Source of the DNA: a virus
Taxonomy: Duplodnaviria > Caudoviricetes
DNA length: 64,000 nucleotides
Strand: one strand, 5' to 3'
Virus record (IMG/VR): IMGVR_UViG_3300033463_000012
Position numbers and translations under genes: made by a program. Of this stretch, positions 3,157 through 64,000 are shown piece after piece. Numbering within the stretch: position 1 is the stretch's first letter; each line of letters begins with the position of its first letter. Under the pieces are notes generated by a model. The model was not told where the DNA came from. It saw nothing but the letters and a program-made list of their open reading frames with translations, and did not search any database.

Positions 3157-3909
3157 TTATGATAATGCTTCCATCAATTCATCGAAGTGTTCTTCTATGT
3201 CTTTTCTACTTAATTGATAATTACCTCTGACTCTTCTTCCTACATCAGGAACATGTTTTTCTAGATAATCAACCAGTTTTCCTACTGTTCCATAACCATT
3301 AAGTTCTATGTAAACTGGATACTTGTCCTCTGAAATTTCAAAACTTCTATAACAAGAAGAAGGGCCTCTATGTAACCAATTTATACAAGAACCATGGTCT
3401 CCTCTATATCCATCTGCTATGATACGCACCATTTCTCTATCACTACTATCATCAAAAACATCATACAATGCTTCCAAGAATTTCAATACATACTTTGACT
3501 TTTCTTTCTGCTCAGTCCTGAATCCTTCCCGAAGCATCCGACCACGGAGACGACGGGATTCATTGAATTTTCCTTCTCTGGACATTTTTATATGATTTTC
3601 AGTCCTGATGCTGGAAATTTCATCATCAACAACATATCTTATTGCTTTGAACATTGGTCCGGCTGAAAACACAATATCGAAATTTTCAATATCATAAACA
3701 TCAATATCCAATGAAGCACCTAAATCAATAAGAGGCCTGACTATTTTCGTCAAAGCATCTGTCATATTTATTGGCAGATTAGGAAGATTGGTTTTTACTC
3801 CTTCATCATCATTTCTGCGATGGATTTGAACATATGAACCTTCGACTGGATTCAAATCTTTGTCAAAGGCATCAAATCCTTTTCTGTTTACTGTTAGTCG
3901 TCCAAGCAT
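3157..3909 (-). CDS. Hypothetical two-module protein with central FNESRRLRGRMLREG linker
   Basis: 250-aa ORF with AAGGAG RBS; AT-rich halves joined by a GC-richer linker. Confidence 0.75.
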   Translation of the reverse strand: MLGRLTVNRKGFDAFDKDLNPVEGSYVQIHRRNDDEGVKTNLPNLPINMTDALTKIVRPLIDLGASLDIDVYDIENFDIVFSAGPMFKAIRYVVDDEISSIRTENHIKMSREGKFNESRRLRGRMLREGFRTEQKEKSKYVLKFLEALYDVFDDSSDREMVRIIADGYRGDHGSCINWLHRGPSSCYRSFEISEDKYPVYIELNGYGTVGKLVDYLEKHVPDVGRRVRGNYQLSRKDIEEHFDELMEALS

Positions 3910-3921
3910 TTTTCATTCTCC

Positions 3922-4341
3922 TTATTTTGTCTTTGTCATTATGATTCCATCTTCTTCCGTTTCCTGGACAGCGACGAAACCAAAACTTTCATAGATTTCG
4001 ATCAATTTAGCCATCTCGGTTCCTTTGTCCGGATATGCTCGAAGGATGAACTGTTTGCAATGTTCCCTGTTTTCAATCTCCTTCAAGCCCATTCCGAACA
4101 AGGTCTTTCCGAGACCAATTCCCCGGTATTCCTTGTTTATGTAGAAATACTCGATGTTCGTAACTCTTTCGTCGGGGTCAAATCCTCTCATTATGTCAAA
4201 GTCAAATTCATCGGACAAAGTTTCTTCATATTCGTGCATGATTACTTCAAAATATCCACAGGTATATGACAAATATCCTATCTGTTCACCATCCAAAATG
4301 AACTTCACTTCGTTTTCTGAATAGTCAATTGATATGTTCAT
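3922..4341 (-). CDS. GNAT-family acetyltransferase
   Basis: Motif A YINKEYRGIGLGKTL and C-terminal IYESFGF. Confidence 0.85.
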   Translation of the reverse strand: MNISIDYSENEVKFILDGEQIGYLSYTCGYFEVIMHEYEETLSDEFDFDIMRGFDPDERVTNIEYFYINKEYRGIGLGKTLFGMGLKEIENREHCKQFILRAYPDKGTEMAKLIEIYESFGFVAVQETEEDGIIMTKTK

Positions 4342-4877
4342 TTATTGTCCATTATGATTTGATTGCAACAGAATGTCAATTTCCTGATGATTTTTCCTGG
4401 AGAATTATATGAAAAATCCAAGCCATCTGAACGAACGAAGAATGAGTCCGACATTATCCACGTCTTCAAAATGTCGAAGTCACCGGAATTCGTATATCCT
4501 TTCGGAGACAAAACCGAAATCCTGATGTCTCCTATACAAGCCGATGACCAATAACGATGAATGCCATATTGGTCAATGTTCCTTATTTCCAATTCATTCA
4601 CCAATTCCGAAACCTTCCAATCCTTGGTTTCCTCCATGGTGATCGTGAATTCGTAGCCATCGTTTTCCTTCATCACAGGACGGGAGAATGGACGACCTTG
4701 CACCTGGAATCCGACCTTCTGAAATTCCACAGGTTCCTGAATGGATATGTCCGTGACCATCCAGTTCTTTACATCCACTCCCAGGGTATCAGGAAAATTG
4801 ACGATAAACCAGTTGTTCGGTTGTATCGTCTTTTGATTGAACGCTTCCTGTTCCTTTTGAAGAGGTACCTTGGCCAT
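4338..4877 (-). CDS. Tail tube-like protein (divergent gp19 paralog)
   Basis: Same layout as the two neighbouring tube-like genes (FTITMEE...LDFSYNS...KLTF); same operon as the sheath. Confidence 0.55.
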   Translation of the reverse strand: MAKVPLQKEQEAFNQKTIQPNNWFIVNFPDTLGVDVKNWMVTDISIQEPVEFQKVGFQVQGRPFSRPVMKENDGYEFTITMEETKDWKVSELVNELEIRNIDQYGIHRYWSSACIGDIRISVLSPKGYTNSGDFDILKTWIMSDSFFVRSDGLDFSYNSPGKIIRKLTFCCNQIIMDNK

Positions 4878-4880
4878 CTA

Positions 4881-6124: not shown

Positions 6125-8269
6125 CTAGGATTCCGTGAAGGAAACCCCGGTTCTGGTCACTATGATGTTGAGGTTGATGAATTCCACCGTCTTGACCGGC
6201 TGAACGTATAGGTCGATGTTCAGTTCATTGTTGTCGATTGTGTAGGGGGTATTGTTGGTCGAGTCGCACACGGTATTGTATGCATAAAGACCACCACCTG
6301 CATAAATCGTCTGAAGGAACTGGTCAATGCCCGACTTCACACGAGAACGGAGAAGTTCGGTATTGGGCTCGAACAGATACGCCTGAAGGGAGGGTTCGAG
6401 GGTGTTTTCGATGTAGAGCAAGAGGCGTCGGACATTGATGCGGTCGAGAGCGGAGGCCTTGACCTGACCCGTCTTCTGTCCCCACATGTAGTCACCTGCA
6501 CCACGCACCCGCTTGGAGGTGTTGACGTTGTTGGCGTAGAGGTAGCCGATTTCCTGTTCGGTGTAGACCTTCATCTGGTCCAGGGTTCCCATCGCACCTC
6601 TATTCAGCCCGGCAGGAGCGTCCCAAACATGAGCCACATTGTCGTTGTTGGCTATGATACGACCAGCGAAGGCGACCTTAGGAAGGTAGATGTTCTTGTT
6701 GGTGTATTGGTCATAAACCAAGTCCGTGCCGGCGTAGATGCCTACATAGCTGTTTCTTGCGAAAGAATTGATATTGGGCAATTCAGTTTCAACTATGGTC
6801 TGTGCCTTCACTACATTCAACCCGGAAACGGGAATCACGGCGAAGCAGTCCCGACGAGAGGAAGCGACTTCGCAGACGGCCTGGACCAGTTCCTTGACAA
6901 TGGCGGTTTCGGTAACATAAGGAGCCATCAGGATGTTCGGGGTCACCTGTTCCTTGGAGCCGTATAGTGCTCTCCAACAATCAGCTATGCCGTCGGTCGA
7001 AGACTGATTGTATTCACCCTTAGGCAGAGCCGTGACGTTCTTGGCGGAATAGTTGAGTTCCGAGGAAATGTAGGTCACTGCCTTTTCCATTTCCACTTCA
7101 GTCCCTTCATCGGAACCACAGGAAAGTTCATATCCACTGAGAGTGACGTCAATGCTTCCGATTGTACCTTCAGACTTGATAAGGGTCTTGGTCAGGTATA
7201 TCGTAGTGCTCCGTCTGGATTCACTGTCAATTGCTTCCCAACCACCAGTGACGTCGAATTCGGTTCCATCTGCAACCAGCTTGCCTTCGGAAACCGTAAG
7301 GGAGTCAACTGCAGTTCCGCCGATTGTGGCTCCATCGATCTTGACCTTGAGAATCCCGTTTTCGAAGGTAGGATCAGCATAGGTCAGAGTCATTTCAGTG
7401 GAGCCGGAAGTCAGAGTTTCCGGAACAGTGAGCGTGGAGGAGAACAGGATCAGAGGAACAACAGGATAAAGAGTTCCTTCAATCGGTTTCTTGTTGGTGT
7501 TGACGTAGATGAAATCGGAGTATCCGTTGACCACGTCCTTGACGAACATGGAATTGCCGGAATAGTCCTTGGCCAGAGGGTCATTGGAAACCACCCAGGA
7601 TTCGGTAGGAACCAAGTCCTTCAGAGGATCAACACCGGTCCAACCTGCATCTTCAAATGACTTGTCGGTGGTCTTGGTATAGACGTTGATTCTGTAGTAT
7701 TTTACCGGTTCGCCATTGATGTTGGTTTCGGGATATTTCCCCGCCCAGGTATAGCCATAGGTATAGGCCATAGTCTGAGTTTCGGTGTTGTCTTCGGTCA
7801 CCACGATGATGCCAATGTTGTCGCTTTCGTTCGAAGCGCCAAGTGCAGTGATGACCAGAGGCGAATCAGTGATCTGTTCAGCAGGATAATACTTGTTCGG
7901 CTGGTTGCCGTCTTCGTATCCATCTTCAGAAAAGATGTCTTTGCCTTCGGATTCCTGTCCTTCCTTCCATGATTCACCATCGACCTTGATGTAGCCAACT
8001 GTGTCGTTCTCGGTGGCTGGACGAGTGAACCACATGAAATCGGATGCCTTGAGGAATTCGATTGCGGTGTAGATCGGGTATTCATCTCCATTAATGGGCG
8101 CGCCGAACTTGGACACGAAGTCCTTGTTGCTCGTGGTCAAAACCCGTCTGTTGGTCATGCCCTTGGGAGTCCGGCCCACCAAAGCACCGACGTTGGTGCC
8201 AGCGGGAACGGTCACTTCGGACAAGTCTATCTCTTTGACCTGTACGCCTGGTGCTCTGTATGATGCCAT
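6125..8269 (-). CDS. gp18: Tail sheath protein gp18
   Basis: APGVQVKEIDLS N-terminus, WDAPAGLNRG, WGQKT, SALDRINVRRLL, LFEPN. Confidence 0.96.
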   Translation of the reverse strand: MASYRAPGVQVKEIDLSEVTVPAGTNVGALVGRTPKGMTNRRVLTTSNKDFVSKFGAPINGDEYPIYTAIEFLKASDFMWFTRPATENDTVGYIKVDGESWKEGQESEGKDIFSEDGYEDGNQPNKYYPAEQITDSPLVITALGASNESDNIGIIVVTEDNTETQTMAYTYGYTWAGKYPETNINGEPVKYYRINVYTKTTDKSFEDAGWTGVDPLKDLVPTESWVVSNDPLAKDYSGNSMFVKDVVNGYSDFIYVNTNKKPIEGTLYPVVPLILFSSTLTVPETLTSGSTEMTLTYADPTFENGILKVKIDGATIGGTAVDSLTVSEGKLVADGTEFDVTGGWEAIDSESRRSTTIYLTKTLIKSEGTIGSIDVTLSGYELSCGSDEGTEVEMEKAVTYISSELNYSAKNVTALPKGEYNQSSTDGIADCWRALYGSKEQVTPNILMAPYVTETAIVKELVQAVCEVASSRRDCFAVIPVSGLNVVKAQTIVETELPNINSFARNSYVGIYAGTDLVYDQYTNKNIYLPKVAFAGRIIANNDNVAHVWDAPAGLNRGAMGTLDQMKVYTEQEIGYLYANNVNTSKRVRGAGDYMWGQKTGQVKASALDRINVRRLLLYIENTLEPSLQAYLFEPNTELLRSRVKSGIDQFLQTIYAGGGLYAYNTVCDSTNNTPYTIDNNELNIDLYVQPVKTVEFINLNIIVTRTGVSFTES

Positions 8270-8306: not shown

Positions 8307-8801
8307 TTAGAACGTGTCGCTTTCGTCATATTCCCAATCGTATATGTTCCCCACATAATCGACTTTCTTCAGTTTTTCCATCAATGACTGGGCAATGGCT
8401 TCATCTTCACCGGTTACACAGGAGATAGCATCTTCCATGCCTATATTTTTATAAGTTGGACAACTTACAATTTTGAATACATCATGATATCCGCCACCAC
8501 ATGGACCATCCCAATCATATCCATCATCATATCCTTCTGATGTAAAAGATGCAAATTCTACTGGTGAATCATCACAGTATTCTTTTACATCAAAAAGCAT
8601 TTTTGTTTCTTCTTCATTGAGATTTGCTTGTTTTGCAAGTTCCTTTAGATTCAGGTGAATTGTCGGAGGTTCACCTATTGCATTTCCAGAAGAACATGTC
8701 CATAATTCTCCTTCATTTTCTATGTCAAATTCCATAACAACATCTTCTGTATCATCCCAGCTTGAACCACTCAGATAATTGCCTTCAAACAATCTTCTCA
8801 T
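8307..8801 (-). CDS. Hypothetical acidic protein
   Basis: ORF with GAGGGG RBS; begins MRRLFEG. Confidence 0.7.
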   Translation of the reverse strand: MRRLFEGNYLSGSSWDDTEDVVMEFDIENEGELWTCSSGNAIGEPPTIHLNLKELAKQANLNEEETKMLFDVKEYCDDSPVEFASFTSEGYDDGYDWDGPCGGGYHDVFKIVSCPTYKNIGMEDAISCVTGEDEAIAQSLMEKLKKVDYVGNIYDWEYDESDTF

Positions 8802-8809: not shown

Positions 8810-9127
8810 TCACTTCTGGTTGATCACACCAACGGTTTCGCCTTTGTCACCAACCCAGGCGTCCTTCGACTTTTCGGGAGGAGGAATCTGTTCAACGTTC
8901 GGGTTGTATTCAATTCCAAGCAGCTTCAGGAAATGATTCTCGGCTTCCTTGGCGGCATTTTCAATAACCGCCAAAGCCAGCTGTTCATCTCCATCCAAGT
9001 GCCAAAGAAGGACTTGCCATTCCTTTGATCCTGGCTTGATCGCCAACTGCTTCAATGCCTGCTTGTAGTCCGTGGTTATCGCATCTACGCAGGTGTTTTC
9101 CTTCAAATAATCCTTGAAGTTTTTCAT
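8810..9127 (-). CDS. Hypothetical protein with capsid-targeting-like N-terminus
   Basis: Begins MKNFKDYLKE; AAGGAG RBS; CTAAAT motif upstream. Confidence 0.75.
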   Translation of the reverse strand: MKNFKDYLKENTCVDAITTDYKQALKQLAIKPGSKEWQVLLWHLDGDEQLALAVIENAAKEAENHFLKLLGIEYNPNVEQIPPPEKSKDAWVGDKGETVGVINQK

Positions 9128-9282: not shown

Positions 9283-10470
9283 CTAGGCCTTCTTGGGCTT
9301 TCTTCCACAGGATTTCCTTTCAATGCAGTATCCAGTCTTTTCGCATTTAGGAACGAAAAGATTGTCCGAAATCCACTTCCATTCATCGTCCAGTGCTCCT
9401 AATGCCTTCTTCAGTTCATAGGCAAGTCTGTGGATTTCATGGTATGCTCGGCCACAAAGACGCTGGTTCATGAAGTTCTCGAGCATTCTCAGGTTGCATT
9501 TCCAGATGATTTTGGTGCTCATGCCCAAAGGAAGGACATTGGCCGCATCCTCCTTTGAAACGCCGAGTTCCATCAACTTCTTGTATCCTTCCTTGATTTG
9601 ATTCATGACCTGATCATAGATTTCCTCTTGGTCAGGTTTCATCGGAGGAGTGAAGTAGTCGAATTCCGCACAATTGACATATCTGGTCGATTCCTGAAGA
9701 CGAGTTGGGGATCCTCCAATGTGGGTATAGAGTTCCCGAATTGCACGAGCGGACCACCCGGAAAGGACCACTTCAATGTCAACGAATTCCATCGTCCTAC
9801 CATGGCCTGACAGGATGCAATCCTTACCACGGGTGATGTTCTTTTCCAGATTGTCTTCCGAGTTCCAGCAAATTCCGGCCATCTTCCCGATTTTCTGCAA
9901 GGGATTTCTGGTGGTCTCGTCCAATATTACAACTTTTTCCACTTCCTTCTTTTCCACCAGTTTCGACTTGAATTCCGAGTTCCACTTCTTATCGTCCACC
10001 CAATAGGCAGGGCACTGTTTCCATGTTACGTCGAAATGGCGGATGACGTTTTCGGCCGGGATGTTGAATTCGGCCATCAGTTCCTTGGTCAATTCAATGG
10101 CCATATCAATTGTTGCCTGGTTCGGAAGGATTTCGGTCTTGGTGCTTCCGGTTCCGCAGAGTTCAATGCCTATGGAGTTCGTGTTGGTGCATTTTCCGTT
10201 GTAGGTTCCGCCTTGAGTTCCAGACAGAAGTTTCCCGCCACAATGCCAAGCCGCGTGACTGAGGGGAACGGACTGAAGGATTTCCTTGCCGTCCACGAAA
10301 AAGTGTGCAGAGGACTTGGTGACATTGTTCTTGAAGTATTTGCAGTTCCCAGCGGCCGTGTCGTTTTTGTTGGCCGTATAATGTATGACAATATAACATA
10401 CTTTGCCTAGGTCCCTGCTGGTCTTGGCGAAATTGTCCTGATGTGCCTGAACTAGTTTGTATTGCTTCAT
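9283..10470 (-). CDS. thyX: Fusion: N-acetylmuramoyl-L-alanine amidase (Amidase_2) + flavin-dependent thymidylate synthase ThyX
   Basis: N half IVIHYT, SAHFFVD, AWHCGG, NSIGIELC, RHFDV..KQCP; C half SGHGRTMEF, RELYTH, QESTRY, VLPLG, NLR...RLC.RA..EI; no stop codon between them. Confidence 0.88.
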   Translation of the reverse strand: MKQYKLVQAHQDNFAKTSRDLGKVCYIVIHYTANKNDTAAGNCKYFKNNVTKSSAHFFVDGKEILQSVPLSHAAWHCGGKLLSGTQGGTYNGKCTNTNSIGIELCGTGSTKTEILPNQATIDMAIELTKELMAEFNIPAENVIRHFDVTWKQCPAYWVDDKKWNSEFKSKLVEKKEVEKVVILDETTRNPLQKIGKMAGICWNSEDNLEKNITRGKDCILSGHGRTMEFVDIEVVLSGWSARAIRELYTHIGGSPTRLQESTRYVNCAEFDYFTPPMKPDQEEIYDQVMNQIKEGYKKLMELGVSKEDAANVLPLGMSTKIIWKCNLRMLENFMNQRLCGRAYHEIHRLAYELKKALGALDDEWKWISDNLFVPKCEKTGYCIERKSCGRKPKKA

Positions 10471-19686: not shown

Positions 19687-19759
19687 TGCTCCATATCTCA
19701 GTAGGCAGAGAGTCCGACTGTTAATCGGAATGTCCCAGGTTCGAACCCTGGTGGAGCAG
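19687..19759 (+). tRNA. tRNA-Asn(GTT), no encoded CCA
   Basis: Cloverleaf; TCCGA-CT GTT AA-TCGGA; GGTTCGAACCC. Confidence 0.93.
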
Positions 19760-19765
19760 TGTTTT

Positions 19766-19856: not shown

Positions 19857-19858
19857 TC

Positions 19859-19930: not shown

Positions 19931-19932
19931 TT

Positions 19933-20495: not shown

Positions 20496-20501
20496 ACTTT
20501 T

Positions 20502-47853: not shown

Positions 47854-48771
47854 ATGGACAAAGAAAAATTGGAAAGAATTCGGGCTGCCAGTGAAGCAAG
47901 AAAAGCCAGAGAGGAAAAGGCAAGGCAGGAAAAGGAAGCTGCAGAAAAAATTGCTCGAGATGAAGAACTAAAACGGAGCAATGCTGCCTGGGAAGCCCGT
48001 GAAGTCAAGGAAAAGGAAGAGGAAGAAAACAGCAGAAAGGAATATGCTTCAGAAGTTTCTGCAGTGGAAAGCAAAGTTCGAGCATTGTTCAAAGAATTTT
48101 CGGAACTTCAAGCTGATTGTGTTGAATATAACAAGTTGTACAAAGAAACTAACAATTGGGATATTGATCCTGATCCAATTGATGTCATTTATGCTGATAA
48201 TAGCGACAAGTTGAAGTATGGACCAGAAGAAAGTGTGCCACTGGATGATCAGGATGTCATTGTAATCAGCACTCCTAATGGTGAAGATTTTTACATGTCT
48301 TGCAAGGATTATGACAGTGATTATTTCTTTACACTTACCGACCGCGTCCTTTATTGCGGGACGGCTCCAGAAGACATTTGGATGATCACTGACACAAGTC
48401 CAGAGTTTTGGCTCGAAGACACTCCAGGTAGATATGTGAAATTCATGAAGGAAAAGGGCGAAGATCCTATCAAGATGCTGGATGAAGTCGAAAGAAGATT
48501 CAATATCATCAAGGACAAAGTCGAATATTTCATAGACGAGAATATGAAGATAATCGAAAAGAAATATGAAGGAGAGGATCTCAATGAATCTGTCGGTTCC
48601 AAGGTCATGAACGCCAAGACAGCCAAGAAATACATGAACAAGATTGCTGACCTGTCCACCGAACTTTCCGAATATGTTTCAGAAAAGGAAGATTGGAATG
48701 ACAGAGTCACACAAAGAGCCGTCAAGTCCTTGAATGGTGCAATTGACCACCTAGAGGATATTGAAGACTAA
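47854..48771 (+). CDS. Hypothetical protein with N-terminal coiled coil
   Basis: GAGG RBS; LNES near the C-terminus. Confidence 0.8.
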   Translation: MDKEKLERIRAASEARKAREEKARQEKEAAEKIARDEELKRSNAAWEAREVKEKEEEENSRKEYASEVSAVESKVRALFKEFSELQADCVEYNKLYKETNNWDIDPDPIDVIYADNSDKLKYGPEESVPLDDQDVIVISTPNGEDFYMSCKDYDSDYFFTLTDRVLYCGTAPEDIWMITDTSPEFWLEDTPGRYVKFMKEKGEDPIKMLDEVERRFNIIKDKVEYFIDENMKIIEKKYEGEDLNESVGSKVMNAKTAKKYMNKIADLSTELSEYVSEKEDWNDRVTQRAVKSLNGAIDHLEDIED

Positions 48772-48817: not shown

Positions 48818-49753
48818 ATGAAAAGAGAATTGATTGAACGTTGGGAACGCCGTCGCGAACTCAAGCGCAAGATTCGCGAATCTGTGCGTGCCGCTCGTCG
48901 GAAGAAGATGCTTGAATCCATCATGGAACGGAAGGAAATCAGCCATAGCCGTCGTCATGGCCTGGCCGAACGTCTTCACGAGTCCTCCAAGCTTCGTCGG
49001 GAACGTCTCCTGGAAGCCCTGAAGGAACGTCGAAAGAGCCGTCTCGCCGAAGCCGTTGAACGTCGGAAGGCTCATCGCCTCGCCGAAGCCCTCCGTGAAC
49101 GTCGTCGTGCTCGCCTGACCGAAAGCCGGTTTGGTGGTCGTCGCGTCATTGATGGTTCTTCCCGTGGTTTCCGTCGTGAGGACGAATCCCTTGACCTTGA
49201 CAGCAAGCTGAGCCGCAAGTCTCGCATTGCCGCCCTTCTCAACAAGCGTCGCGATTTCACTCGTGGCTATGATGAAGATTGGGAAGATGATGATCTGGAC
49301 GAATCCCGCAAGGAACGTCGCCAGCGCATCATGGAAAAGATCAAGGAACTTCGCAGCAAGAAGGCCCTGAAGGAAGACGAACTGGATGTCGAAATCCAGG
49401 ACGACACTCTCCCCATGGACCCTGAAGCCACGCCCGATGAACTCGGTGCCGATTCAGTTGACGGTGAAGAACTTGACGCTGACCTCCTTCTCGGTGAATC
49501 CAAGGAAGTCAAGGCCGACATCAAGCAGCTCAATGAATCCAAGCGTTTCCAGACTTTGATCAACAAGTATCTTTCCGAAGGCGTCCTTGAAGAATCCAAG
49601 AAGGAAGACAAGGAAGACAAGGAAGACAAGGAAGACGAAGAAAAGGAATGCAAGGACGGCAAGTGCAAGGACAAGAAGGACGACAAGGCCACCGCCAAGA
49701 AGTCCGTCAAGGAAAAGGTCCAGGCCTGCAAGGAATGCAAGTCCAAGAAGTAG
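48818..49753 (+). CDS. Highly charged R/E-rich protein, putative prohead core/scaffold or internal protein
   Basis: More than 10 (L/I)-x-E sites; strong codon bias; CTAAAT at 48768. Confidence 0.6.
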   Translation: MKRELIERWERRRELKRKIRESVRAARRKKMLESIMERKEISHSRRHGLAERLHESSKLRRERLLEALKERRKSRLAEAVERRKAHRLAEALRERRRARLTESRFGGRRVIDGSSRGFRREDESLDLDSKLSRKSRIAALLNKRRDFTRGYDEDWEDDDLDESRKERRQRIMEKIKELRSKKALKEDELDVEIQDDTLPMDPEATPDELGADSVDGEELDADLLLGESKEVKADIKQLNESKRFQTLINKYLSEGVLEESKKEDKEDKEDKEDEEKECKDGKCKDKKDDKATAKKSVKEKVQACKECKSKK

Positions 49754-50765: not shown

Positions 50766-51794
50766 CTAGGTGTTTTCTTCGAAGCAGTCCATGCAGACCT
50801 CTTCGGTTCCGTCGTCAGTTTCGATTTCCTTGCATTCTTCGTCAGAGAAAATCTTGGAGCCACAAAGGGCGCAGCAGCACTTGACCCGAGGACGGAATCC
50901 TTCAAGAACTGGCCGAGGACGAATTGATTCATTCAGGTTGTCGATGATGCTTTCAATTCTGTCCAAGGCGTATTTCCAACCACGATATTCATAGCTGGAT
51001 TTGTCAGAGGGTTGGTTTCTCAGCAATTCCTTGTAGAATGCGACAGGACGTCTGATTGCCTTTCCGGGGTCAGTGATTTTGTTTATCTGCTGGTTCAGAA
51101 GGTCGACATAATGATACCAGTCACGGGCTCTGCCGACTGCATCACTGGCTCTCATTTCGTCCTTAGGTTCGATATAGGTCTTGTTCACAATCTTCTGAAT
51201 GTGGTCGAACTTGCGTTCCTTTTCCTGTCTTTCGGCCCTTTCCTTGGCTTCGGCTTCCGCCTTCGCCTTGGCTTCCTGTTCACCCTTGACACGATTGTAA
51301 CGCTGGTCACGGGTTTCTTCAGGGTTCCAATTGCGGGTCATCTTTCTGCCCTTCAGATATTCATAAAGCCAATAGCAGTCAGCAACGGTCACTGCATAGT
51401 CCTTGGCGTTTCGGTCGAGATAGGGAACAACAGTAAGGTTCTGTCTGTTCCAATCTCCAAGGTCATCGTCGTTCATGTTGATCTTGACGACCTGCTTGAC
51501 CTTGTTGCCTAGCCATTCCTTGAACTTGTTTTCGTCGAATGTGTATTCGTAATTTTCATATTTCAACCATTCTTCCGGGATGTCATACCATTTCGACCCA
51601 TATCCCTTTTCACTAGATTTGATAGTGAACTCGATGCCCTGAGGAACTTTTTCATAATCGCAAAGGTTCCAATATTTTTCCATGCGAGGGCTGTTTTCCC
51701 AAATGCCGTCCGAGAGCTGACCGAACACCGAACTGATAATGTCATAATAGACGGGGTCCTTTAGCGGGAGGACGAACTTGTATTCTGTTGCCAT
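50766..51794 (-). CDS. Hypothetical multi-module late protein
   Basis: GGAG RBS; LNESIRPRPVLEG linker then a CxxC...CxxC module. Confidence 0.8.
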   Translation of the reverse strand: MATEYKFVLPLKDPVYYDIISSVFGQLSDGIWENSPRMEKYWNLCDYEKVPQGIEFTIKSSEKGYGSKWYDIPEEWLKYENYEYTFDENKFKEWLGNKVKQVVKINMNDDDLGDWNRQNLTVVPYLDRNAKDYAVTVADCYWLYEYLKGRKMTRNWNPEETRDQRYNRVKGEQEAKAKAEAEAKERAERQEKERKFDHIQKIVNKTYIEPKDEMRASDAVGRARDWYHYVDLLNQQINKITDPGKAIRRPVAFYKELLRNQPSDKSSYEYRGWKYALDRIESIIDNLNESIRPRPVLEGFRPRVKCCCALCGSKIFSDEECKEIETDDGTEEVCMDCFEENT

Positions 51795-52774: not shown

Positions 52775-53419
52775 ATGGAAAAGAAATATGAACTTACAGA
52801 TGAGACAATGGAATTTTATGATGCTGTTCCTCATATTCTTCATAGAATCAGAGCCCTCAAGGACTTCACCCTCAATGGCTACGCGGGTGATGTTAAGGCC
52901 GGGGATCTTGGTGGCTGGATTGAATCTGAGGATAATCTGAGTCAAGATGGCAAGTGTTGGGTAGGGGAAAATGCCAAAGTATATGGAGGAGCCAAGGTAT
53001 ACGAAGATGCCCTGGTTAGTAATATTGCAGTGGTTTCTGAAAATGCCAAGGTATACGGGAAGGCCAAGGTGTGCAGATGGTCCCAGTTGCACGGAAATGC
53101 GGATGTTTCGGGAAATGCTTTTGTGCATGGAAATGCTCATGTATATGAGAATGCCGAAGTATATGGACATGCCGATGTATACGATAACGCCCAAATATAT
53201 GGAAATGCTAGTGTATCTGAAAATGTCTATGTGTATGGAGATGCACAGGTGTTTGGAGATGCTAAGGTTTCCGGTGACATCTGGATTCATGAAGATGCAT
53301 ATGTACAAGGTAATACAAATTTGGATGATTCGTTTGGTAAGTTGGACATCCGCGGTAATGCAAACATTAAATCGGATAAAGATATTGACAAACCCGAAGA
53401 AAGAAGGACATTTCGTTAG
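52775..53419 (+). CDS. Left-handed beta-helix (hexapeptide repeat) protein
   Basis: KYELT...RIRALKDF...GDLGGWIE...NLSQ..CWV then (V/I)YGNAx repeats. Confidence 0.9.
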   Translation: MEKKYELTDETMEFYDAVPHILHRIRALKDFTLNGYAGDVKAGDLGGWIESEDNLSQDGKCWVGENAKVYGGAKVYEDALVSNIAVVSENAKVYGKAKVCRWSQLHGNADVSGNAFVHGNAHVYENAEVYGHADVYDNAQIYGNASVSENVYVYGDAQVFGDAKVSGDIWIHEDAYVQGNTNLDDSFGKLDIRGNANIKSDKDIDKPEERRTFR

Positions 53420-54393: not shown

Positions 54394-54699
54394 ATGATCC
54401 CTGGCTACATCACATTCATGGAATCAAAGTCCACTTCGGCCATGTTCTTGGATTCGGAGATTCGGCTCATAAAGAAATACTGCAATGACAATGACGGCAT
54501 TGTTCGCTTCAATTTCATCGGGGATTCACAGGTCGCCAATATGCAGTTCGGGCCCTCGCTTTATGACCGGGTGGAATTGATCAGACGTCCGGATTGCTAC
54601 AGATTGAGAATGAAATCCAATGACATAGACACAAAGCCGGTCAGCGAGGATTTCAAATCGTTCAAGGAAGCGCTGAAGTTCCTTGAGGAGGAAAGTTAG
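54394..54699 (+). CDS. Hypothetical protein
   Basis: AAGGAG RBS; begins MIPGYITFMES. Confidence 0.75.
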   Translation: MIPGYITFMESKSTSAMFLDSEIRLIKKYCNDNDGIVRFNFIGDSQVANMQFGPSLYDRVELIRRPDCYRLRMKSNDIDTKPVSEDFKSFKEALKFLEEES

Positions 54700-54700: not shown

Positions 54701-56284
54701 ATGAAGGAAAATGTTGTAATTTTCGCGTCCCCGCTATTGGGCAAGCTCGTAAAAACCCACCTCAGGATTTATACTGAGCTATTGGAACGCGGGGTCAAGG
54801 TTTATTCAATTGACTGCCGAACCGCAAAGGTCCTTGAACCAGGGAAGATTCAGGGCAAGGTCGCCAAGATGGAAGGGGATCAGATCATCGAATTCGACCC
54901 CAATTGCACTGCCTGTGTGGTTTCCAATGGCATAGTCGGAAACAAACATGCTTCCGAGTTCGTTGATGACCTGGAGGACATGGGCGTCTATGTGGTCAAT
55001 TCCCTGGAAGGCATCAACATCGCCAGAAACAAGGAAAACTACGACCGCATTTGCAAGAAGTTCGACATTCCGGCACCCAAGACGGTTTTGGTCACAAACC
55101 CTGGACAACTTGAAACAGTCCTTCCTGAATTCAATTTCCCGATTGTTTGCAAGACCACCACTGGTTCCTTGGGTGTAGGTGTCTTCAAGGTCGACAAGGC
55201 GTCCCTGGTCAAGCCGATATTCCAGGCCATGTGGAAACTCAATCCCGACTTGAAGAACGACGGCATTCTCATTCAGGAATTCGTTCCCAATCATGGTGAC
55301 ATCAGAACGATTGTCGTCGGTGGAAACATCGTCGGTTCAATGAAGAGAATTGCAAAGGAAGGGGATTTCCGTAACAACTTCTCCCAGGGCGGTTCAGTGG
55401 AAAACTATGCACCGTCCTATGAAGAACAGCAGGTAATCCTGAAAGCCGCGAAACATTCCAAGTGCGAAATCTGCGGTGTTGACCATATCCTGGCGGAAGA
55501 TGGAAAGCCCTATGTTATCGAAGTGAACTCCTGCCCCGGGACCGATGGCTTCAAGCAGGTCCACCCGGAAGTCATTGAACGCATGGCCGACTTCGTCCTT
55601 TCCAAGTGCAAGGAATCGACCAAGACCCGGATTATCGGAGCCATGGAAAAGGTCGACCTGGAGGAAATCGGGGAACTTGAAGCCCTGATGGACATGAGTG
55701 AACGGCAGAATTCAGTTTTGGACGCACGGGACATTGACCTTGATGACCAGTTCGTGACCTTCACCTCCAACCAGAGACGGGTCAAACTTCCGGTCCATGA
55801 CGTGAACACCTACATCGTGAACGGGAACTACAGAAAGGTTCCTGTGGTCAAGCTGGACATGAAGATGGGCGGAACCACTTTCGAAAACATTTCCTTTGAA
55901 TTGGTGAACCGCGAAAACAAGAAGACCCCGGTCCTCCTGTCCAAGTCCTTCCTTACTGGTCATAAATACCTTATTGACCCGAACAAGACCAACTCGCTCC
56001 TGAAGGAATCCGTGGAAGAGGATTTGGACGCCGAAATGCTGGACGAACCGAGTGCCTCCTTCTCCCCGGATTTGTCGGACGAAGCCCTGGTCGCCCTGTT
56101 CTCGCTCACGCAGAAGGGTCCGGTCGAGGAAAAGCCATTGACTCAAGCAGCGATCGATGAACTGAAAATGCACGAATTCATCACCGAAGACAACGAACTC
56201 ACCGAAGGCGCCTGGGAATACCTGACTTCGGATGCATCAGTTGAACGTTTGGAAAATCTGCGCAATGGCATGGAAGAGGCATAA
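54701..56284 (+). CDS. RimK-family ATP-grasp ligase fused to a degenerate aspartic-protease-like domain and an acidic tail
   Basis: PKT, FPIVCK..GSLGVGV, IQEFV, DIR, FRNNFSQGG, GVD, IEVNSCPG; second domain ALMDMS...PVLLSKSFL. Confidence 0.88.
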   Translation: MKENVVIFASPLLGKLVKTHLRIYTELLERGVKVYSIDCRTAKVLEPGKIQGKVAKMEGDQIIEFDPNCTACVVSNGIVGNKHASEFVDDLEDMGVYVVNSLEGINIARNKENYDRICKKFDIPAPKTVLVTNPGQLETVLPEFNFPIVCKTTTGSLGVGVFKVDKASLVKPIFQAMWKLNPDLKNDGILIQEFVPNHGDIRTIVVGGNIVGSMKRIAKEGDFRNNFSQGGSVENYAPSYEEQQVILKAAKHSKCEICGVDHILAEDGKPYVIEVNSCPGTDGFKQVHPEVIERMADFVLSKCKESTKTRIIGAMEKVDLEEIGELEALMDMSERQNSVLDARDIDLDDQFVTFTSNQRRVKLPVHDVNTYIVNGNYRKVPVVKLDMKMGGTTFENISFELVNRENKKTPVLLSKSFLTGHKYLIDPNKTNSLLKESVEEDLDAEMLDEPSASFSPDLSDEALVALFSLTQKGPVEEKPLTQAAIDELKMHEFITEDNELTEGAWEYLTSDASVERLENLRNGMEEA

Positions 56285-57602: not shown

Positions 57603-59288
57603 ATGAATCTGCAGAACCTCAACCCATTTTCTTCTCAGTTCCTCAAATTCGCTGGGGACGCTCCAAAGAAGATTGAGCAGATCGGGAAGAACTCGGTCGG
57701 CGAAGGCATCAATGACCAGCCAATAATCGGTGACATTCTCCTGACGAACATGACCTATGGTGGACAATACGACACCACGGGAGTCACCTTCGGTCAGTAT
57801 TTCGAGAACAAGGCCAGCCGAATCAGCCAATACAGGACCATGGCGAACTATCCCGAAATCGCTTCTGCAATCTATATGATCTGCGACGAGGCGATCAATG
57901 AAAACAACGTCGGTGACTTCATCTCCTTCGACATCAAGGACACCGATGGATTGAAACGCAAGACCATTCGTGACCTGAAGGAAGAATGGAACATCGTCAT
58001 CAATGAATTGTTCAACTTCAAGGAAACCGGCTGGGAATTGTTCAAGTGCTTCATGGTCGAGGCGGAACTCTATTTCGAAATCGTGTTGAGTGACCCGGAC
58101 GAGAAGGGAAATCAGGAAATCATCGCCTTCAAGCAGCTTCCGGCCTACACCATGACCCCGGTATACAAGAACGGGGCTATCATCAAATATCTTCAGGTGA
58201 CCGAAGATGGGACAAAGACATTCCAGGAAAACCAGATCCTCTATGTGAACTACGGTGAATACGGTGACAACAAGATGGACATTCGTGGCTATCTTGACCC
58301 CGTCATCGCGATCTACAATATGATCAGAAACCTTGAGGACTCGGCCGTCATTGCACAGATAGTCAGGGCACCGGAACGTCGCGTGTTCAACATTGAAGTC
58401 GGCAAGGTTTCCCCTGGGCGCGCCGAACAGATTCTGCAGAAGACGATGCATAACTACAGAAAGAACCTGAAGTTCGACCCGACCACAGGGCTTTTGAATG
58501 CAGGTGACAGATTCCAGGCCATGACCGAGGACTTCTTCTTCGCCAAGTCTGATGGTCAGGGATCCTCGGTCGAAACCCTTGCATCAGGACAGAATTTGGA
58601 ACAGCTCATAGAATTGCCCAACTATTTCCTCCGCAAGATGTACAAGGCACTTCACATTCCTTCGACAAGATGGGGTGGCGGGGTCCTTGCTGGTGCATCC
58701 GAGGGCGGTCAGGGTCAATACAACAACAAGATGGACATTGAACGTGAGGAACTGAACTTCACCAAATTCATTGAACGTCTCACCCGTCGGTTCTGCAAGC
58801 TGTTCTACAAGGCATTCATTTTCGACATCACGTTGAAGAAATTTGACCCAGCTACTCTTGTTCCCTTCAACTACAACATTCGTATGAACCCGAACAACCA
58901 GTATGCTCAGTATCGGGAACTTGAACTGATGAAGGAAAAGCTGGACATGTTGAGTCAGTATGGAGACCTGCGTTTGACGGCGGAAAACCCGAATGCAGTC
59001 TTCGCCAATGAATACTTCCTCAAGAACATCTGCGGATTCACTCAGTCTCAGCTCGAAACCAACGAGGACATGAAGGCGGAGGAAAAGAAGGAATTGCAGA
59101 TGCAGCAACCCGAAGGCGAAGAAGTGGAATTCGGTGGTGAATCCGACTTCGGCGGAGGTGGTGACGGCGGATTCGGAGGCAGCGACTTCGGCGGTGGTGA
59201 CGAAGGAGCAGGCGATTTTGGAGGTGGACCCAGTGAAGGACCAGGAGAAGGCGGTCCAAGCGAAGGTCCAGGGGAACCAGGGATGTAG
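57603..59288 (+). CDS. gp20: Portal protein gp20
   Basis: YRTMANYPEI, EDSAVI..IVRAPERRVFNIEVG, EDFFF, YKALHIP.TR, REELNF.KFI.RL. Confidence 0.97.
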   Translation: MNLQNLNPFSSQFLKFAGDAPKKIEQIGKNSVGEGINDQPIIGDILLTNMTYGGQYDTTGVTFGQYFENKASRISQYRTMANYPEIASAIYMICDEAINENNVGDFISFDIKDTDGLKRKTIRDLKEEWNIVINELFNFKETGWELFKCFMVEAELYFEIVLSDPDEKGNQEIIAFKQLPAYTMTPVYKNGAIIKYLQVTEDGTKTFQENQILYVNYGEYGDNKMDIRGYLDPVIAIYNMIRNLEDSAVIAQIVRAPERRVFNIEVGKVSPGRAEQILQKTMHNYRKNLKFDPTTGLLNAGDRFQAMTEDFFFAKSDGQGSSVETLASGQNLEQLIELPNYFLRKMYKALHIPSTRWGGGVLAGASEGGQGQYNNKMDIEREELNFTKFIERLTRRFCKLFYKAFIFDITLKKFDPATLVPFNYNIRMNPNNQYAQYRELELMKEKLDMLSQYGDLRLTAENPNAVFANEYFLKNICGFTQSQLETNEDMKAEEKKELQMQQPEGEEVEFGGESDFGGGGDGGFGGSDFGGGDEGAGDFGGGPSEGPGEGGPSEGPGEPGM

Positions 59289-59821: not shown

Positions 59822-59824
59822 GAG

Positions 59825-60529: not shown

Positions 60530-61219
60530 ATGAAAATGAGATTTATGAATGAAGACCTAGCAAGCATTAGAAAGCGCGTAGATGACCAGACGGAAGCACT
60601 CAGAAAGCGTTCCGAACGTTGGTCTCGACATCAGGAAGAAGCTGAAGCCGAGGAAGAGGCACAAACTGAACGAATCGCCAAAAGGGTGGAATTCCTAGCC
60701 AAGGGTTTGAACAAGAGATTGGCCGAAATTCTGGAAACCTGGAAGGGTGTTTGTGAAATAGTGGGGAAACCGGAAGGAGTCAAAATCATTGCAGATGAAA
60801 ACTCGTCCATAACTGCAGATGAATTCAATGATGAATTTTTGAGTGACCAAGTCGGAGATTACACCGAGATTTGCAGATTGCTCGAAACAGGTGAAATCAT
60901 CCTACGCCCTGCAGATTTCGGAACGATATTCACATATTCTACTGATGAAGGTTCCATTGGCGCATGGTTGGATGCGACCGTCGGGGCTCCCAGTGGCAGT
61001 AGTCCTTCACATAGGTGGTATTTCGTGAATCTCAGTGATGATGCCAGCAGCTATGTGGAAGAATACCTGGGATGGTTAGGAAGCGATGAAGATGACGAGA
61101 TAATCGAAAGCGTTTCCGATCTCAAGCCGCTGATAGACGAACTCGAAAATGCGGTCGAAACCTGGGCAGAAAATGAGCTGAATGACAATGAACAGAAAGT
61201 CATTCGCAAAAGAGGCTAA
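60530..61219 (+). CDS. Hypothetical protein
   Basis: Begins MKMRFMNE; coiled coil then acidic domain. Confidence 0.75.
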   Translation: MKMRFMNEDLASIRKRVDDQTEALRKRSERWSRHQEEAEAEEEAQTERIAKRVEFLAKGLNKRLAEILETWKGVCEIVGKPEGVKIIADENSSITADEFNDEFLSDQVGDYTEICRLLETGEIILRPADFGTIFTYSTDEGSIGAWLDATVGAPSGSSPSHRWYFVNLSDDASSYVEEYLGWLGSDEDDEIIESVSDLKPLIDELENAVETWAENELNDNEQKVIRKRG

Positions 61220-61238: not shown

Positions 61239-61478
61239 ATGGAACCAGAAAAGAAGACACACGTAAAGCTGGACACGGAATCCATCAAGAATTTCCTTGA
61301 ACTCCCTGTGTGCATTGAAACGGCGAACAAGGTTGACGACTTGGTGATGGATTTGATCCTCAGCTATATCGACAGCTCAGCCGACAATGGATATGCCACG
61401 GACGAAGAGATCAAGGAATTCTTTGACAATCATAAGTTCGAACTTCTCCGTGCCGTGTATGGCAGGGGTGACATCTAG
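61239..61478 (+). CDS. Small hypothetical late protein
   Basis: CTAAATA at 61216; GAGG RBS. Confidence 0.75.
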   Translation: MEPEKKTHVKLDTESIKNFLELPVCIETANKVDDLVMDLILSYIDSSADNGYATDEEIKEFFDNHKFELLRAVYGRGDI

Positions 61479-61498
61479 AATTCCCAGGAGATTACGTC

Positions 61499-61690
61499 AT
61501 GGACACTTCGAAATTCCTCAAGACTTCTGACTTTGACCAATTCAACGGCACCCTCATCTCTCGTGTGATGATGGAGAAGGACTACATCGGCCTTGAACGT
61601 GACCTCGACGCCATAATCAAGGGCAAGATCGAGGAGCGCAAGAACCAGGCCCGGGAGGAATGGAAGGAAATGATGAGAGGGGAGGAATAG
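61499..61690 (+). CDS. Small hypothetical protein
   Basis: AGGAG RBS. Confidence 0.7.
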   Translation: MDTSKFLKTSDFDQFNGTLISRVMMEKDYIGLERDLDAIIKGKIEERKNQAREEWKEMMRGEE

Positions 61691-61692
61691 GG

Positions 61693-62625
61693 ATGATAGA
61701 CGAAAAGGAAATACCCGAAGAGCTGGTCAAGGCCGTGAATGATGCCCATAGACCTTGGCATTATACTGATAATATGAATTATACCAATGCTGATAAAAAA
61801 TGGGCAATTAAAGTCATCAAAGAAGCTATTCATACAATACACAGTTTGATGAACAAGGGGGTTGACCCTGCAGAAAAACAGACTGGACATAGCTCAAATC
61901 ACTATATAGAAATACTAGATTGGATGGGTCTTGATGCTGACTGGGAATCCTTTTTCGCTGAACTTTGTAATCAAACCTATTCTCAGAAGGAAATTTTTTA
62001 TCTGTATATTGATGGAAAAAAAGACCAGGTTTTTGCCAATTTCGATGATGCCAAAAATGAAGCAGATATCATATATTCGTATGGAAACTTTACAGATTCA
62101 GTTAAAGTGAAGGATGAAAAAGGCGAAGTGTTTTATGATCCTAGTGAGTATGATGAAGAAGATGAGTCATATGAACCTATTATGTATAATGTTTTCTTTG
62201 ATTCTGTTTCTGGAAAAGAATGGTATTATCTGCACACCTTCAGAACTCTGGAAGATGCAAAGGATTATGTATGTAAAGACACAGGCAATTACAAAATCAA
62301 AAATTCTTTTGGTGAACTTATTTTAGATACAGATGATATTGAAAAGTTACGTCAGGAACGTAGCAATATTTCCGAATCCACCAACATCTTTGAATCCTTC
62401 CTCGGAAACAGGCAGAAGGGTGGTTTCGACGCTGCAAAGGTGGTCAGAAACCTAAAGGACGGAAGATACGACAGCGAGAATGTCATAGCTGCCTGCGTGT
62501 CGGCCCTGGAAGAAAGACAGAAGTCGGCTCTTGCTCAGAAGTTGGTCAAGCAGTTGCAGTCCGACGGAATCCTGGCCAAGGTGTTCAAGCGCAGTGGGGA
62601 ATTCGGGACGAAGGAGCAACAATGA
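61693..62625 (+). CDS. Hypothetical multi-module protein
   Basis: GGAGG RBS; ISESTNIFES linker before a GC-richer C-terminal module. Confidence 0.75.
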   Translation: MIDEKEIPEELVKAVNDAHRPWHYTDNMNYTNADKKWAIKVIKEAIHTIHSLMNKGVDPAEKQTGHSSNHYIEILDWMGLDADWESFFAELCNQTYSQKEIFYLYIDGKKDQVFANFDDAKNEADIIYSYGNFTDSVKVKDEKGEVFYDPSEYDEEDESYEPIMYNVFFDSVSGKEWYYLHTFRTLEDAKDYVCKDTGNYKIKNSFGELILDTDDIEKLRQERSNISESTNIFESFLGNRQKGGFDAAKVVRNLKDGRYDSENVIAACVSALEERQKSALAQKLVKQLQSDGILAKVFKRSGEFGTKEQQ

Positions 62626-64000
62626 GAATCGATGAAGCATTTAGCAAGCCAAGACAGATCAAGCAGAAATACCGTCTTTCTGCGGAGAAGATGACACTTA
62701 AAGGTGGAACTATCCTTCATCGTATTGTCGCCATGAGAGATTTTGGTGATGTAAAAAAAGGCGATAAGGGTGGCTGGGTTGAATCCGATGATAATTTGAG
62801 CCACGATGACGATTGCTGGATTTATGACGATGCCAAAGTTTATCAAAATGCACAAGTTTATGATAATGCACAGGTGCGAGATAATGCTATCATATTAGGT
62901 GATTCCAAAATTTTCGATAATGCAAAAATATATGGAAATGCAAAGGTATATGGAACCAATGGTTTCAATAGATGTAAGGTATATGGAAATGCACAGGTAT
63001 ATGAAAATGCGCAAGTTTTATTCTTTGCAGAAGTGTATGGAAATGCACAGGTATATGGCAATGCCGAAGTGGGTGGAGAATCCAAAGTATATGGAAATGC
63101 TAAGGTATATGGAAATGCCAAATTAGAGCGGGAACCTATTATACACGGTGATGCCAAGGTATACGAAGATGCCACTGTGCGTGGTGAAGCGGAAGTATAT
63201 GAAAACGCTAAGGTATATGGACATGCACAAGTACACGGAGATGTAAAGATTTATGGCTATGCCCGTGTATATGGTAATGCCGAAATATATGAGGATGCCA
63301 AAGTGTTTGGGTCATCCTTTGTGTATGGTGATGCCAAGGTATATGGTGATGCCACAGTTGAAGAATCTGCGCATATATACGAAAACGCTGTAGTAGAACA
63401 TTATGCGCATGCATTCGGATACATTCACGGAAATGCACATGTCTATGGTGGTTATGTAGGTGGCAACATATATGAAAACGCCAGAGTATATAGTGGGGTC
63501 ATCGGTGATTCGGAAGTTTATGGTGAAGCAATGATTGGCGGCGAAAACGTGAAAATATTAGAAGGATCAAAAGTGTTCGGCAAAGCAGAAGTTACTGGAG
63601 GAAAGATTCTGCATTCATTTGTATATGAAAATGCCGATGTATCCAATTGTAATAAAATTTCATGGTCATATATTCATGGAAATGCTCACATAAGAGAAAG
63701 TGCCAATATACACAGCTATGCTGATATATATGGACATGCTGAGATTTCTGGATATGCCTGGATAGAAAATGGTTCGAAAGTGTTTGGAAATGCAAAGATT
63801 TCTGGAAAAGCAAGATTAGAAAGATATTCAACTGTTCTTGAAAATGCTGTAGTATGTGATAATGCTTTCATTAAAGAATCAACAGTGGGTGGACATGCAA
63901 AGGTATGCGATAAAGCGCAGTTGTATCATTCTGAAGTTGGTGGAAGAGTCACTATTGATGAAGATATTGAATTAGATAAGGCAAAAATCTATTCAGGCCT
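62622..64000 (+). CDS. Long left-handed beta-helix (hexapeptide repeat) protein, runs off window end
   Basis: MRIDEA...LHRIVAMRDFGDVKKGDKGGWVESDDNLS..CWIY then many VYGNA repeats; paralog of 52775-53419. Confidence 0.9.
   Translation, partial: MRIDEAFSKPRQIKQKYRLSAEKMTLKGGTILHRIVAMRDFGDVKKGDKGGWVESDDNLSHDDDCWIYDDAKVYQNAQVYDNAQVRDNAIILGDSKIFDNAKIYGNAKVYGTNGFNRCKVYGNAQVYENAQVLFFAEVYGNAQVYGNAEVGGESKVYGNAKVYGNAKLEREPIIHGDAKVYEDATVRGEAEVYENAKVYGHAQVHGDVKIYGYARVYGNAEIYEDAKVFGSSFVYGDAKVYGDATVEESAHIYENAVVEHYAHAFGYIHGNAHVYGGYVGGNIYENARVYSGVIGDSEVYGEAMIGGENVKILEGSKVFGKAEVTGGKILHSFVYENADVSNCNKISWSYIHGNAHIRESANIHSYADIYGHAEISGYAWIENGSKVFGNAKISGKARLERYSTVLENAVVCDNAFIKESTVGGHAKVCDKAQLYHSEVGGRVTIDEDIELDKAKIYSG

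Follow-up and report, generated by a model that had tools for sequence, protein, structure and literature searches.

Does a phage of the T4 type carry, dispersed among its late genes, a set of head-internal proteins that are brought into the prohead and cut there into separate parts? This question is raised by a 64,000-nucleotide stretch of DNA, hereafter the window, that corresponds to the minus strand of bases 2538-66537 of the 132-kb IMG/VR virus record IMGVR_UViG_3300033463_000012, the completeness of which is estimated at 66%. An initial annotation of the window drew attention to late genes with N-termini that resemble a capsid-targeting peptide and with internal linkers that resemble protease sites, and proposed that about 15-20 such proteins are packaged, cut inside the head and injected into the host. 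The capsid targeting sequence of the T4 internal proteins was reportedly described by Mullaney and Black in 1996. T4 proteins that are packed in the head act before phage gene expression. For example, IPI blocks a restriction enzyme and Alt modifies RNA polymerase.

Here we describe the leaders, the candidate processing sites, the protease gene and the module organization of these proteins, and compare them with homologues from other genomes. We consider it probable, although by no means assured, that a set of late genes in this phage encodes head-internal proteins that are processed by the phage's own gp21-type prohead protease. The evidence that carries this reading is a protease gene next to the capsid genes, a cutting motif that recurs at the maturation site of the capsid protein, N-terminal leaders that are conserved among orthologues, and sites that coincide with the module boundaries of relatives.

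Results

A prohead protease and a candidate cutting rule

A gp21 homologue, which the initial annotation anticipated elsewhere in the genome, is located just beyond the window. In extended window coordinates this prohead protease gene occupies 64055-64693, and its product matches Peptidase_S77 (PF03420) with 130 bits, which is above the curated cut-off, as well as phrog_207 with an E value of 4e-71. The region directly beyond the window contains this protease gene, then genes for a 129-aa protein and a gp22-like scaffold, and then the start of the capsid protein gene. In the available capsid-protein fragment the sequence F-L-T-E↓A (the arrow marks the predicted cut) aligns with the T4 gp23 maturation site that ends a 65-residue propeptide, so the motif singled out in the initial annotation is that of a conserved capsid-protein maturation site. 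The N-terminus of T4 gp24 is likewise a 10-residue leader, ending in L-R-E↓S. T4 gp21 cleaves after I/L-x-E and shows activity when it is co-expressed (PMC12991175) and, within the T4 targeting sequence, residues 4 and 7 control targeting while residues 8 and 10 control processing (PMC9026906).

N-terminal leaders

The clearest leader belongs to gene 8810 (8810-9127, minus strand; genes are named by their lower coordinate), which has the hexamer CTAAAT 41 nt upstream and encodes a 105-aa protein that opens with a T4-like targeting decapeptide (codons 9098-9127). In nine orthologues with 61-90% identity, residues M1, K2, F4, Y7, L8, K9 and E10 are invariant and residues 11-18 vary, a pattern that argues against a chance resemblance. 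A second decapeptide of this kind opens the 351-aa protein of gene 24240 (24240-25295, plus strand), where it is followed by a coiled coil, a variable acidic stretch, the site L-x-E↓A (24822-24836) and a C-terminal domain. Both leaders share the pattern M-K-[ND]-[FW]-K-x-Y-[LI]-x-E, with aromatic residues at positions 4 and 7, an aliphatic residue at 8 and Glu at 10. The targeting-like character that had been assigned to these two N-termini holds at all four functional positions of the T4 sequence (F4, Y7, L8 and E10 in 8810; W4, Y7, I8 and E10 in 24240). In this respect they are like the T4 proteins IPI, IPII, IPIII and Alt, the ~10-residue leader of which is hydrophobic or aromatic at positions 4 and 7, aliphatic at 8 and has Glu at 10 (PMC9026906).

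The leader and the pre-domain site of 24240 persist in homologues with as little as 51% identity, and the acidic stretch between them varies. L-x-E↓A stands just ahead of the C-terminal domain in all four full-length homologues, and L-K-E↓A marks the boundary of this domain in a relative whose N-terminal part differs. Additionally, the orthologue P0003 contains an extra module of ~220 aa behind a two-site spacer. In a low-confidence structure model of the 24240 protein, confidence rises at about residue 203, five residues past the site.

Five further genes (28285, 45070, 33370, 8307 and 54394) have leaders of varying length that end in the processing motif. Gene 8307 (8307-8801, minus strand), which adjoins 8810 in a late unit, encodes a 164-aa protein with a 6-residue leader ending in L-F-E↓G; leaders of the L-F-E type are also found in the relatives P0034 and P0036. 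The 212-aa protein of gene 33370 (33370-34008, plus strand) has a 5-residue leader ending in L-F-E↓S, of the type seen in the 45070 family, and the 101-aa protein of gene 54394 (54394-54699, plus strand) has a 10-residue leader ending in F-M-E↓S. These three genes are included by motif only, and the starts of 8307 and 54394 match public gene calls. L-F-E occurs within the first 12 residues of six genes against 0.66 expected; since one of the six encodes a DNA ligase, we did not use this start as a rule.

A few genes past the capsid protein, distant marine T4-like phages encode a small acidic protein that is conserved among them (L003:16464-16952, L011:8317-8709, L005:8758-9150 and L007:8656-9003). 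Its first 9-10 residues, of the type M-S-F-K-[DN]-Y-[IL]-K-E, resemble the T4 targeting sequence and the 8810 leader, and its remainder is not homologous to 8810.

Candidate processing sites at module boundaries

The internal linkers had been described as falling at apparent module boundaries. Comparison with homologues supports this in four families (8810, 24240, 28285 and 45070), in which relatives keep the leader or the site exactly where modules start, and leaders and two-site spacers stand where relatives add, drop or fuse modules. The 443-aa protein of gene 28285 (28285-29616, plus strand) is composed of an 8-residue leader ending in L-N-E↓S, an N-module, a paired site (28819-28848) and C-terminal modules. 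Fifteen homologues share the N-module only. In proteins of 261-755 aa it stands at the beginning, inside, in two copies or at the end, and in most of them it lies directly behind a site. The sites ahead of this module in relatives are often built as one or two basic spacers, in which E↓S is followed by 7-9 residues and then by hydrophobic-x-E↓S/A/G. A structure model of the 28285 protein (mean predicted local distance difference test, pLDDT, of 73) shows residues 1-8 as disordered, the N-module as helical and confident, and residues 216-268 as disordered; the paired site (residues 179-188) is modelled as a low-confidence helix in which confidence is falling, between two modules that were defined by homology.

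Modules of this family also occur in fusions. The 155-aa protein of gene 26555 (26555-27022, plus strand) has a first module (residues 1-55) that ends in F-K-E, and in P0008 a first module of this type, ending in F-K-E↓G, is fused ahead of other modules and a 28285-type module. In P0016 a beta-solenoid is fused via L-T-E↓G to a 28285-type C-part.

A second family is represented by the 543-aa protein of gene 45070 (45070-46701, plus strand), which consists of a 9-residue leader ending in L-F-E↓S, an N-module (residues 10-321), the junction I-K-E↓N-N-M (46033-46053) and a zinc-ribbon C-module. This protein and four relatives carry different leaders of 5-14 residues, each of which ends in a site at the same alignment column, and several other relatives lack a leader and start right at the conserved core. 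In two relatives the module is internal and stands behind M-K-E↓S-R-L-Y-E↓A or L-T-E↓T. The zinc-ribbon C-module forms a protein of its own in P0031. In P0034 the 45070-type module is followed by I-N-E↓A and then by a module homologous to the stand-alone gene 61239 (61239-61478, plus strand), a 79-aa head-cluster gene between portal and protease. The junction I-K-E↓N-N-M of 45070 corresponds to I-T-E↓N-N-M in P0034 and coincides with the start Met of the stand-alone P0031; this junction may be a site with Asn at P1' or the trace of a recent gene fusion.

Two paralogous genes of the window provide a third example. The 297-aa protein of gene 46713 (46713-47606, plus strand) has the shared module, a second site (47364-47393) and a C-module of its own, and the 342-aa protein of gene 50766 (50766-51794, minus strand) has the shared module, a two-site spacer (50898-50936) and a zinc-ribbon tail of ~43 aa. 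The paralogous module ends exactly at [M/L]-N-E↓S in both proteins, beyond which the sequences differ. A count over 45 homologues from other genomes gave 103 single sites (60 expected) and 28 paired sites with a spacing of 3-13 residues (2.6 expected), although these are not counts of independent events since site-bearing queries were used to retrieve the homologues, among which there are close kin.

Two-site spacers and the site-dense gene 48818

A spacer of 14-15 residues, rich in arginine or histidine and with a site at either end, is found in four proteins, two of which are encoded in the window and two outside it. The 250-aa protein of gene 3157 (3157-3909, minus strand) consists of two modules joined by an arginine-rich spacer of 14-15 aa (3523-3567). 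The 212-aa two-module protein of gene 31139 (31139-31777, plus strand) contains a His/Arg variant (31406-31447), and this gene is preceded by CTAAAT with an extended leader motif.

These spacers resemble single units of the array found in the 311-aa protein of gene 48818 (48818-49753, plus strand; CTAAAT 50 nt upstream). It contains 12 sites, and the motif [LIMFV]-x-E-S occurs eight times against 0.63 expected. The predicted pieces have lengths of 21, 12, 22, 11, 12, 12 and 12 residues with net charges of +1 to +5, and behind them come others that are acidic or rich in lysine. At the DNA level the repeated basic units do not correspond to a tandem repeat. Modules of 28285, 48818 and 60536 end in an acidic run with L/I-x-E↓S behind it.

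Late units and motif statistics

All 17 peptides on which the initial annotation was built, 8 N-termini and 9 internal peptides, are encoded in open frames where it had placed them. It also stated that most of the corresponding genes lie in units led by CTAAAT. This hexamer occurs 58 times, and 36 of the copies stand in sense orientation no more than 100 nt ahead of a gene start, where ~4 would be expected. CTAAAT precedes the sheath, portal, protease, scaffold and terminase genes, T is the next base in 23 of 27 aligned copies, and the hexamer behaves like a late promoter. Under a permissive definition of a CTAAAT-led unit, 15 of the 16 cited genes do lie in such units, but so do 116 of all 193 genes. 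Several CTAAAT promoters show a longer downstream motif, CTAAATT followed by three variable bases, ACAGAA and a T-rich run, which is present upstream of 6125-8269 (minus strand), 24240, 31139, 36414, 52775 and two genes left of the window. It may provide a common 5' leader for a subset of late transcripts, including those of three of the four spacer-bearing genes.

Enrichment of [LIMFV]-x-E-S was measured against residue shuffles of each protein. The enrichment foreseen in the initial annotation is present, with 59 sites in late units against 38.1 expected (z 3.5) and 16 in other genes against 16.6. Eight of the 59 sites are in 48818 and three are artefacts of the hexapeptide repeats of a beta-solenoid. 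Given this distribution and the small excess that is left, a lone site means little, and the single sites to which weight had been given were over-read, as ~37 are expected by chance in late units. Leaders, scored as [LIMFV]-x-E ending at residue 5-12, are found in 37 of 116 late-unit genes and in 9 of 77 others (Fisher p 0.0017). Internal control windows of the same late proteins give 16-25%, and the excess thus amounts to about a dozen genes. The right part of the sequence, with 48818 and the solenoids left out, has 7 paired sites at a distance of 3-12 residues (2.9 expected), and the left part has 8 (2.8 expected). The motif pattern is real but statistically modest within this genome.

Enzymes, head-cluster genes and doubtful members

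Two enzymes encoded in late units carry sites at the edges of their domains. A CCA-adding tRNA nucleotidyltransferase (29625-31094, plus strand) has an acidic N-terminal extension of ~70 aa ending in L-T-E↓S-A-E↓S (29826-29846); its enzyme domain begins at residue 101-103, and the site lies between the acidic extension and this domain. A RimK-type ATP-grasp enzyme with a second domain (54701-56284, plus strand), encoded beside head genes, has L-K-E↓S (55997-56011) ahead of an acidic tail of ~90 aa. Its Pfam domains extend to residue 431, with a weak match to a RimK-associated protease domain over residues 374-431, and the site follows at 434-437. Late units near head genes are an unusual placement for enzymes of these two kinds.

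Several genes of the head cluster show related features. Between portal and protease, a protein of 227-229 aa (60530-61219, plus strand) has a leader-like start, an acidic run and I-I-E↓S (61097-61111). Its start is ambiguous between 60530 and 60536, and the product found in a public collection is not the 60530 form. The 310-aa protein of gene 61693 (61693-62625, plus strand) has a paired site (62368-62397) and is included on motif and context only. Gene 62622 (plus strand; 62622-64000 in the window, running to 64034) encodes a beta-solenoid (Pfam B_solenoid_ydck, bactofilin-like) with a 5-residue start ending in I-D-E↓A, and the same five residues open a spacer-bearing protein at w-15851. The three internal sites of 62622 are the hexapeptide-repeat artefacts noted above and were likewise over-read. 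A paralogous beta-solenoid (YdcK or bactofilin-like) is encoded at 52775-53419 (plus strand), and the longer of the two, 62622, lies directly upstream of the protease gene.

On comparative grounds, nine candidates are well supported: 8810, 24240, 28285, 45070, 3157, 31139, 46713, 50766 and 48818. Leader type, context or fusion partners make 8307, 33370, 26555, 60530, 61239, 61693, 62622, 54394, the CCA-adding enzyme and the RimK-type enzyme plausible members. Membership is weak for gene 47854 (47854-48771, plus strand), whose 305-aa product has a single L-N-E↓S site. Gene 43198, which the initial annotation had included for its N-terminus, is probably not a member. It encodes a widespread phage protein of ~280 aa in which this N-terminus lies inside the aligned fold, with structural alignments beginning at residue 1-9 and only a weak restriction-endonuclease-like lead in the ESM Atlas. 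The earlier figure of 15-20 proteins is thus best read as an upper bound, with about nine window genes having comparative support.

Searches of PHROGs and Pfam returned no family for most cargo candidates and no homology to T4 IPI, IPII, IPIII or Alt. As the T4 internal proteins are themselves mutually unrelated, this absence does not decide the functional class. For the 28285 model, Foldseek against the PDB gave nothing at E ≤ 0.001 and a wide VIA-align search gave generic helical-bundle matches only (Z ≤ 6.5); a search of the ESM Atlas with the 28285 N-module gave no lead. In public protein clusters the candidates are singletons only.

Genome context and relatives

Genes were annotated by PHROGs and Pfam. 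The window contains a tail sheath gene (6125-8269, minus strand) and two tail tube genes, an endolysin (9283-10470), genes for UvsX, a sliding clamp and a DNA ligase at 13-19 kb, and the large terminase (22635-24206). These are followed by a neck gene, a ClpP-family protease and a patatin-like lipase, by the CCA-adding enzyme and a primase, and by the RimK-type ligase, a gp2-like protein and the portal. The portal protein of gp20 type (57603-59288, plus strand; phrog_213, E 2.6e-84) marks the head module and is followed by eight small genes and then by the beta-solenoid protein (62622-64034). Four tRNA genes (Asn, Gly, Ser and Tyr) lie at 19687-20791, with a gap of ~560 nt between Gly and Ser. 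The ClpP-family gene (25973-26530, plus strand; PF00574, 86 bits) also matches PHROGs annotated as 'head maturation protease', and it sits between the neck gene and late cargo genes in a phage that already encodes a gp21-type prohead protease. The patatin-like phospholipase (27413-28276, plus strand; PF01734, 78 bits) belongs to the late unit that also contains 26555, 28285 and the CCA-adding enzyme, and its start is not leader-like.

The source of the window is a deeply divergent T4-type phage. Its portal protein is at most 30% identical to those of deposited phages, which indicates that there is no close cultured relative, and 33-38% identical to those of most IMG/VR relatives. Neither a megablast search with 12 kb nor a tblastn search with the 28285 N-module found a match among deposited phages. 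A portal search of IMG/VR returned distant marine T4-like loci only (33-38%; one short contig 51%), which are compact portal-protease-scaffold-capsid modules with no cargo genes in between. Searches of IMG/VR with alignment A1 and with the extended late-promoter motif gave no match. Relatives were found in ENA, Logan and NCBI metagenome proteins only, and the homologues of the 24240 family came from ENA and Logan.

Discussion

By analogy with T4, head-internal processing by the gp21-type protease would proceed in several steps. A leader of 5-14 residues ending in hydrophobic-x-Glu would dock each protein on the scaffolding core while the prohead is being built. The protease inside the prohead would then cleave after Glu in [L/I/V/M/F]-x-E when S, A or G follows. 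In this way leaders would be removed and multi-module proteins severed at their two-site spacers, where two cuts typically ~11 residues apart would excise a short and usually basic piece. The product of 48818 would be cut into about a dozen pieces, of which six basic 11-22-mers could remain with the DNA. The freed modules would stay in the head and would probably enter the host together with the DNA. The initial annotation thus stands with regard to the protease, the motif, the leaders and the module boundaries, and several of its single sites were over-read; cleavage, presence in the virion and injection of the candidate cargo are steps that we infer from these patterns.

Several points weigh against this reading. 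Without 48818 and the two beta-solenoid genes, the late units contain 48 sites against 36.9 expected (z 1.9), and leader-like starts also arise by chance, as on the DNA ligase at 17707 and on an Mre11-like nuclease. The counts among homologues share the dependence mentioned above. The model of 24240 has a mean pLDDT of 47, and profile and fold searches recognized no function for the cargo modules. A second protease, of the ClpP type, is encoded at 25973-26530. Finally, the phage is uncultured and known from metagenomes alone.

Among other explanations, the one that fares best, although still unlikely, is that the proteins are cut but not delivered. They could be scaffold or core components that are degraded and expelled, like T4 gp22, gp67 and gp68, or they could be processed outside the capsid, for example by the ClpP homologue, the gene of which adjoins 24240 and the neck gene. 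The most site-dense T4 substrates are indeed core proteins that get destroyed, and 48818 and the scaffold are the densest in sites here. T4 gp22 has 16 I/L-x-E sites against 5.8 expected, and 48818 and the gp22-like scaffold are similarly dense. In this density they are like the T4 core and scaffold proteins gp22, gp67 and gp68, which gp21 cuts into small peptides. However, 48818 is not homologous to these proteins, its distance from the protease gene is 15 kb, and its predicted peptides are basic and arginine-rich. The T4 internal peptides are acidic. Moreover, many of the modules look like compact folded domains or enzymes and not like scaffold. ClpP proteases degrade processively and not at defined sites. 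T4 proteins with the targeting sequence remain in the head and are injected (PMC9026906).

It is rather improbable that the spacers are uncut connectors or recombination joints, that is, a conserved patch of DNA that encodes a flexible charged linker with no proteolytic role. The spacer DNA itself lends this idea an argument, as the spacer copies of two unrelated genes, at w3157 and w-15606, agree at 9 of 11 informative codons, one minor Arg codon being used three times, and the chance of this from codon usage is ~1e-5. This near identity indicates that spacer DNA spreads by descent or recombination, and modules are indeed shuffled at the spacers. A role in recombination is compatible with cleavage, however, and a linker function leaves unexplained why one rule, hydrophobic-x-E followed by S, A or G, is found at spacer ends, in leaders and at the capsid-protein maturation site, and why the same rule and the 11-residue spacing recur in spacers of unrelated sequence. 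The least credible alternative, chance and composition, would hold that proteins rich in E, S, L and K and biased late N-termini yield strings that were picked among ~37 chance sites, for which the weak excess outside 48818 and the solenoids, the leader-like ligase and nuclease, the repeat artefacts in 62622 and the N-terminus of 43198 within a conserved fold can be cited; against it, there is enrichment in late units, in leaders and in paired sites and non-late genes show just the expected number, 48818 alone far exceeds its expectation, relatives show a large excess of paired sites, and pure chance is made unlikely because sites coincide with homology boundaries and with the starts of stand-alone modules.

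A bolder form of the preferred reading, in which the proteins are processed in the head, is possible but doubtful. It holds that leaders and spacers constitute a plug-in system, in which any module behind a leader or a two-site spacer would be loaded into the head and freed by the protease. Modules, including the CCA-adding and RimK-type enzymes, would be swapped at spacer DNA, arginine-rich spacers, once excised, would be left as counter-ions of the packed DNA together with the peptides of 48818, and one to two dozen pre-made effectors would be carried.

How does the proposed head-internal processing in this phage compare with known systems? As with the T4 internal proteins, a gp21-family protease is encoded in the genome, unrelated and fast-changing proteins share only the leader, and enzymes, like Alt in T4, may be cargo. 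In contrast to T4, there are several leader types and lengths (5-14 residues), many multi-module proteins with two-site spacers, and genes that extend over >50 kb and not one small locus, all of it known from sequence alone. In the giant phages phiKZ, 201phi2-1 and SPN3US, 8-19 head proteins are cut after Glu by a diverged gp21 homologue (PMC5694885, PMC9026906), with several sites per propeptide and with enzymes that are packaged and ejected, features that the processing proposed here would share. Their motif has a small P3 residue (S/A/G-x-E or A-x-E) and their propeptides are usually >100 residues long (PMC5694885), whereas here P3 is L, I, V, M or F as in T4, leaders are 5-14 residues long, and conserved short spacers are the points where modules are joined and shuffled. 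In the polyproteins of RNA viruses a single reading frame gives rise to several mature products, with sites for the viral protease between them, as is proposed here, but processing in this phage would occur inside the prohead of a DNA phage and would load cargo instead of expressing replication proteins. The individual elements are thus already known, from T4 (targeting sequence and gp21 processing) and from the giant phages with their many processed head proteins. What is new is that unrelated modules are strung behind short leaders, that conserved basic spacers with two sites serve as swap points, and that there is an arginine-rich peptide array; our literature search found no paper that describes this leader-and-spacer module system.

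If head-internal processing is confirmed, phages of this kind would hold a large reservoir of first-strike proteins for anti-defence or host takeover, and would show that cargo can evolve by module exchange. It would also supply a rule by which virion cargo could be predicted from the sequences of metagenomic phages, and a natural design for loading several proteins into a capsid from one gene. The arginine-rich peptides would represent a new kind of DNA counter-ion in a tailed phage and, should the plug-in form prove true, capsid cargo would extend far beyond the set known from T4.

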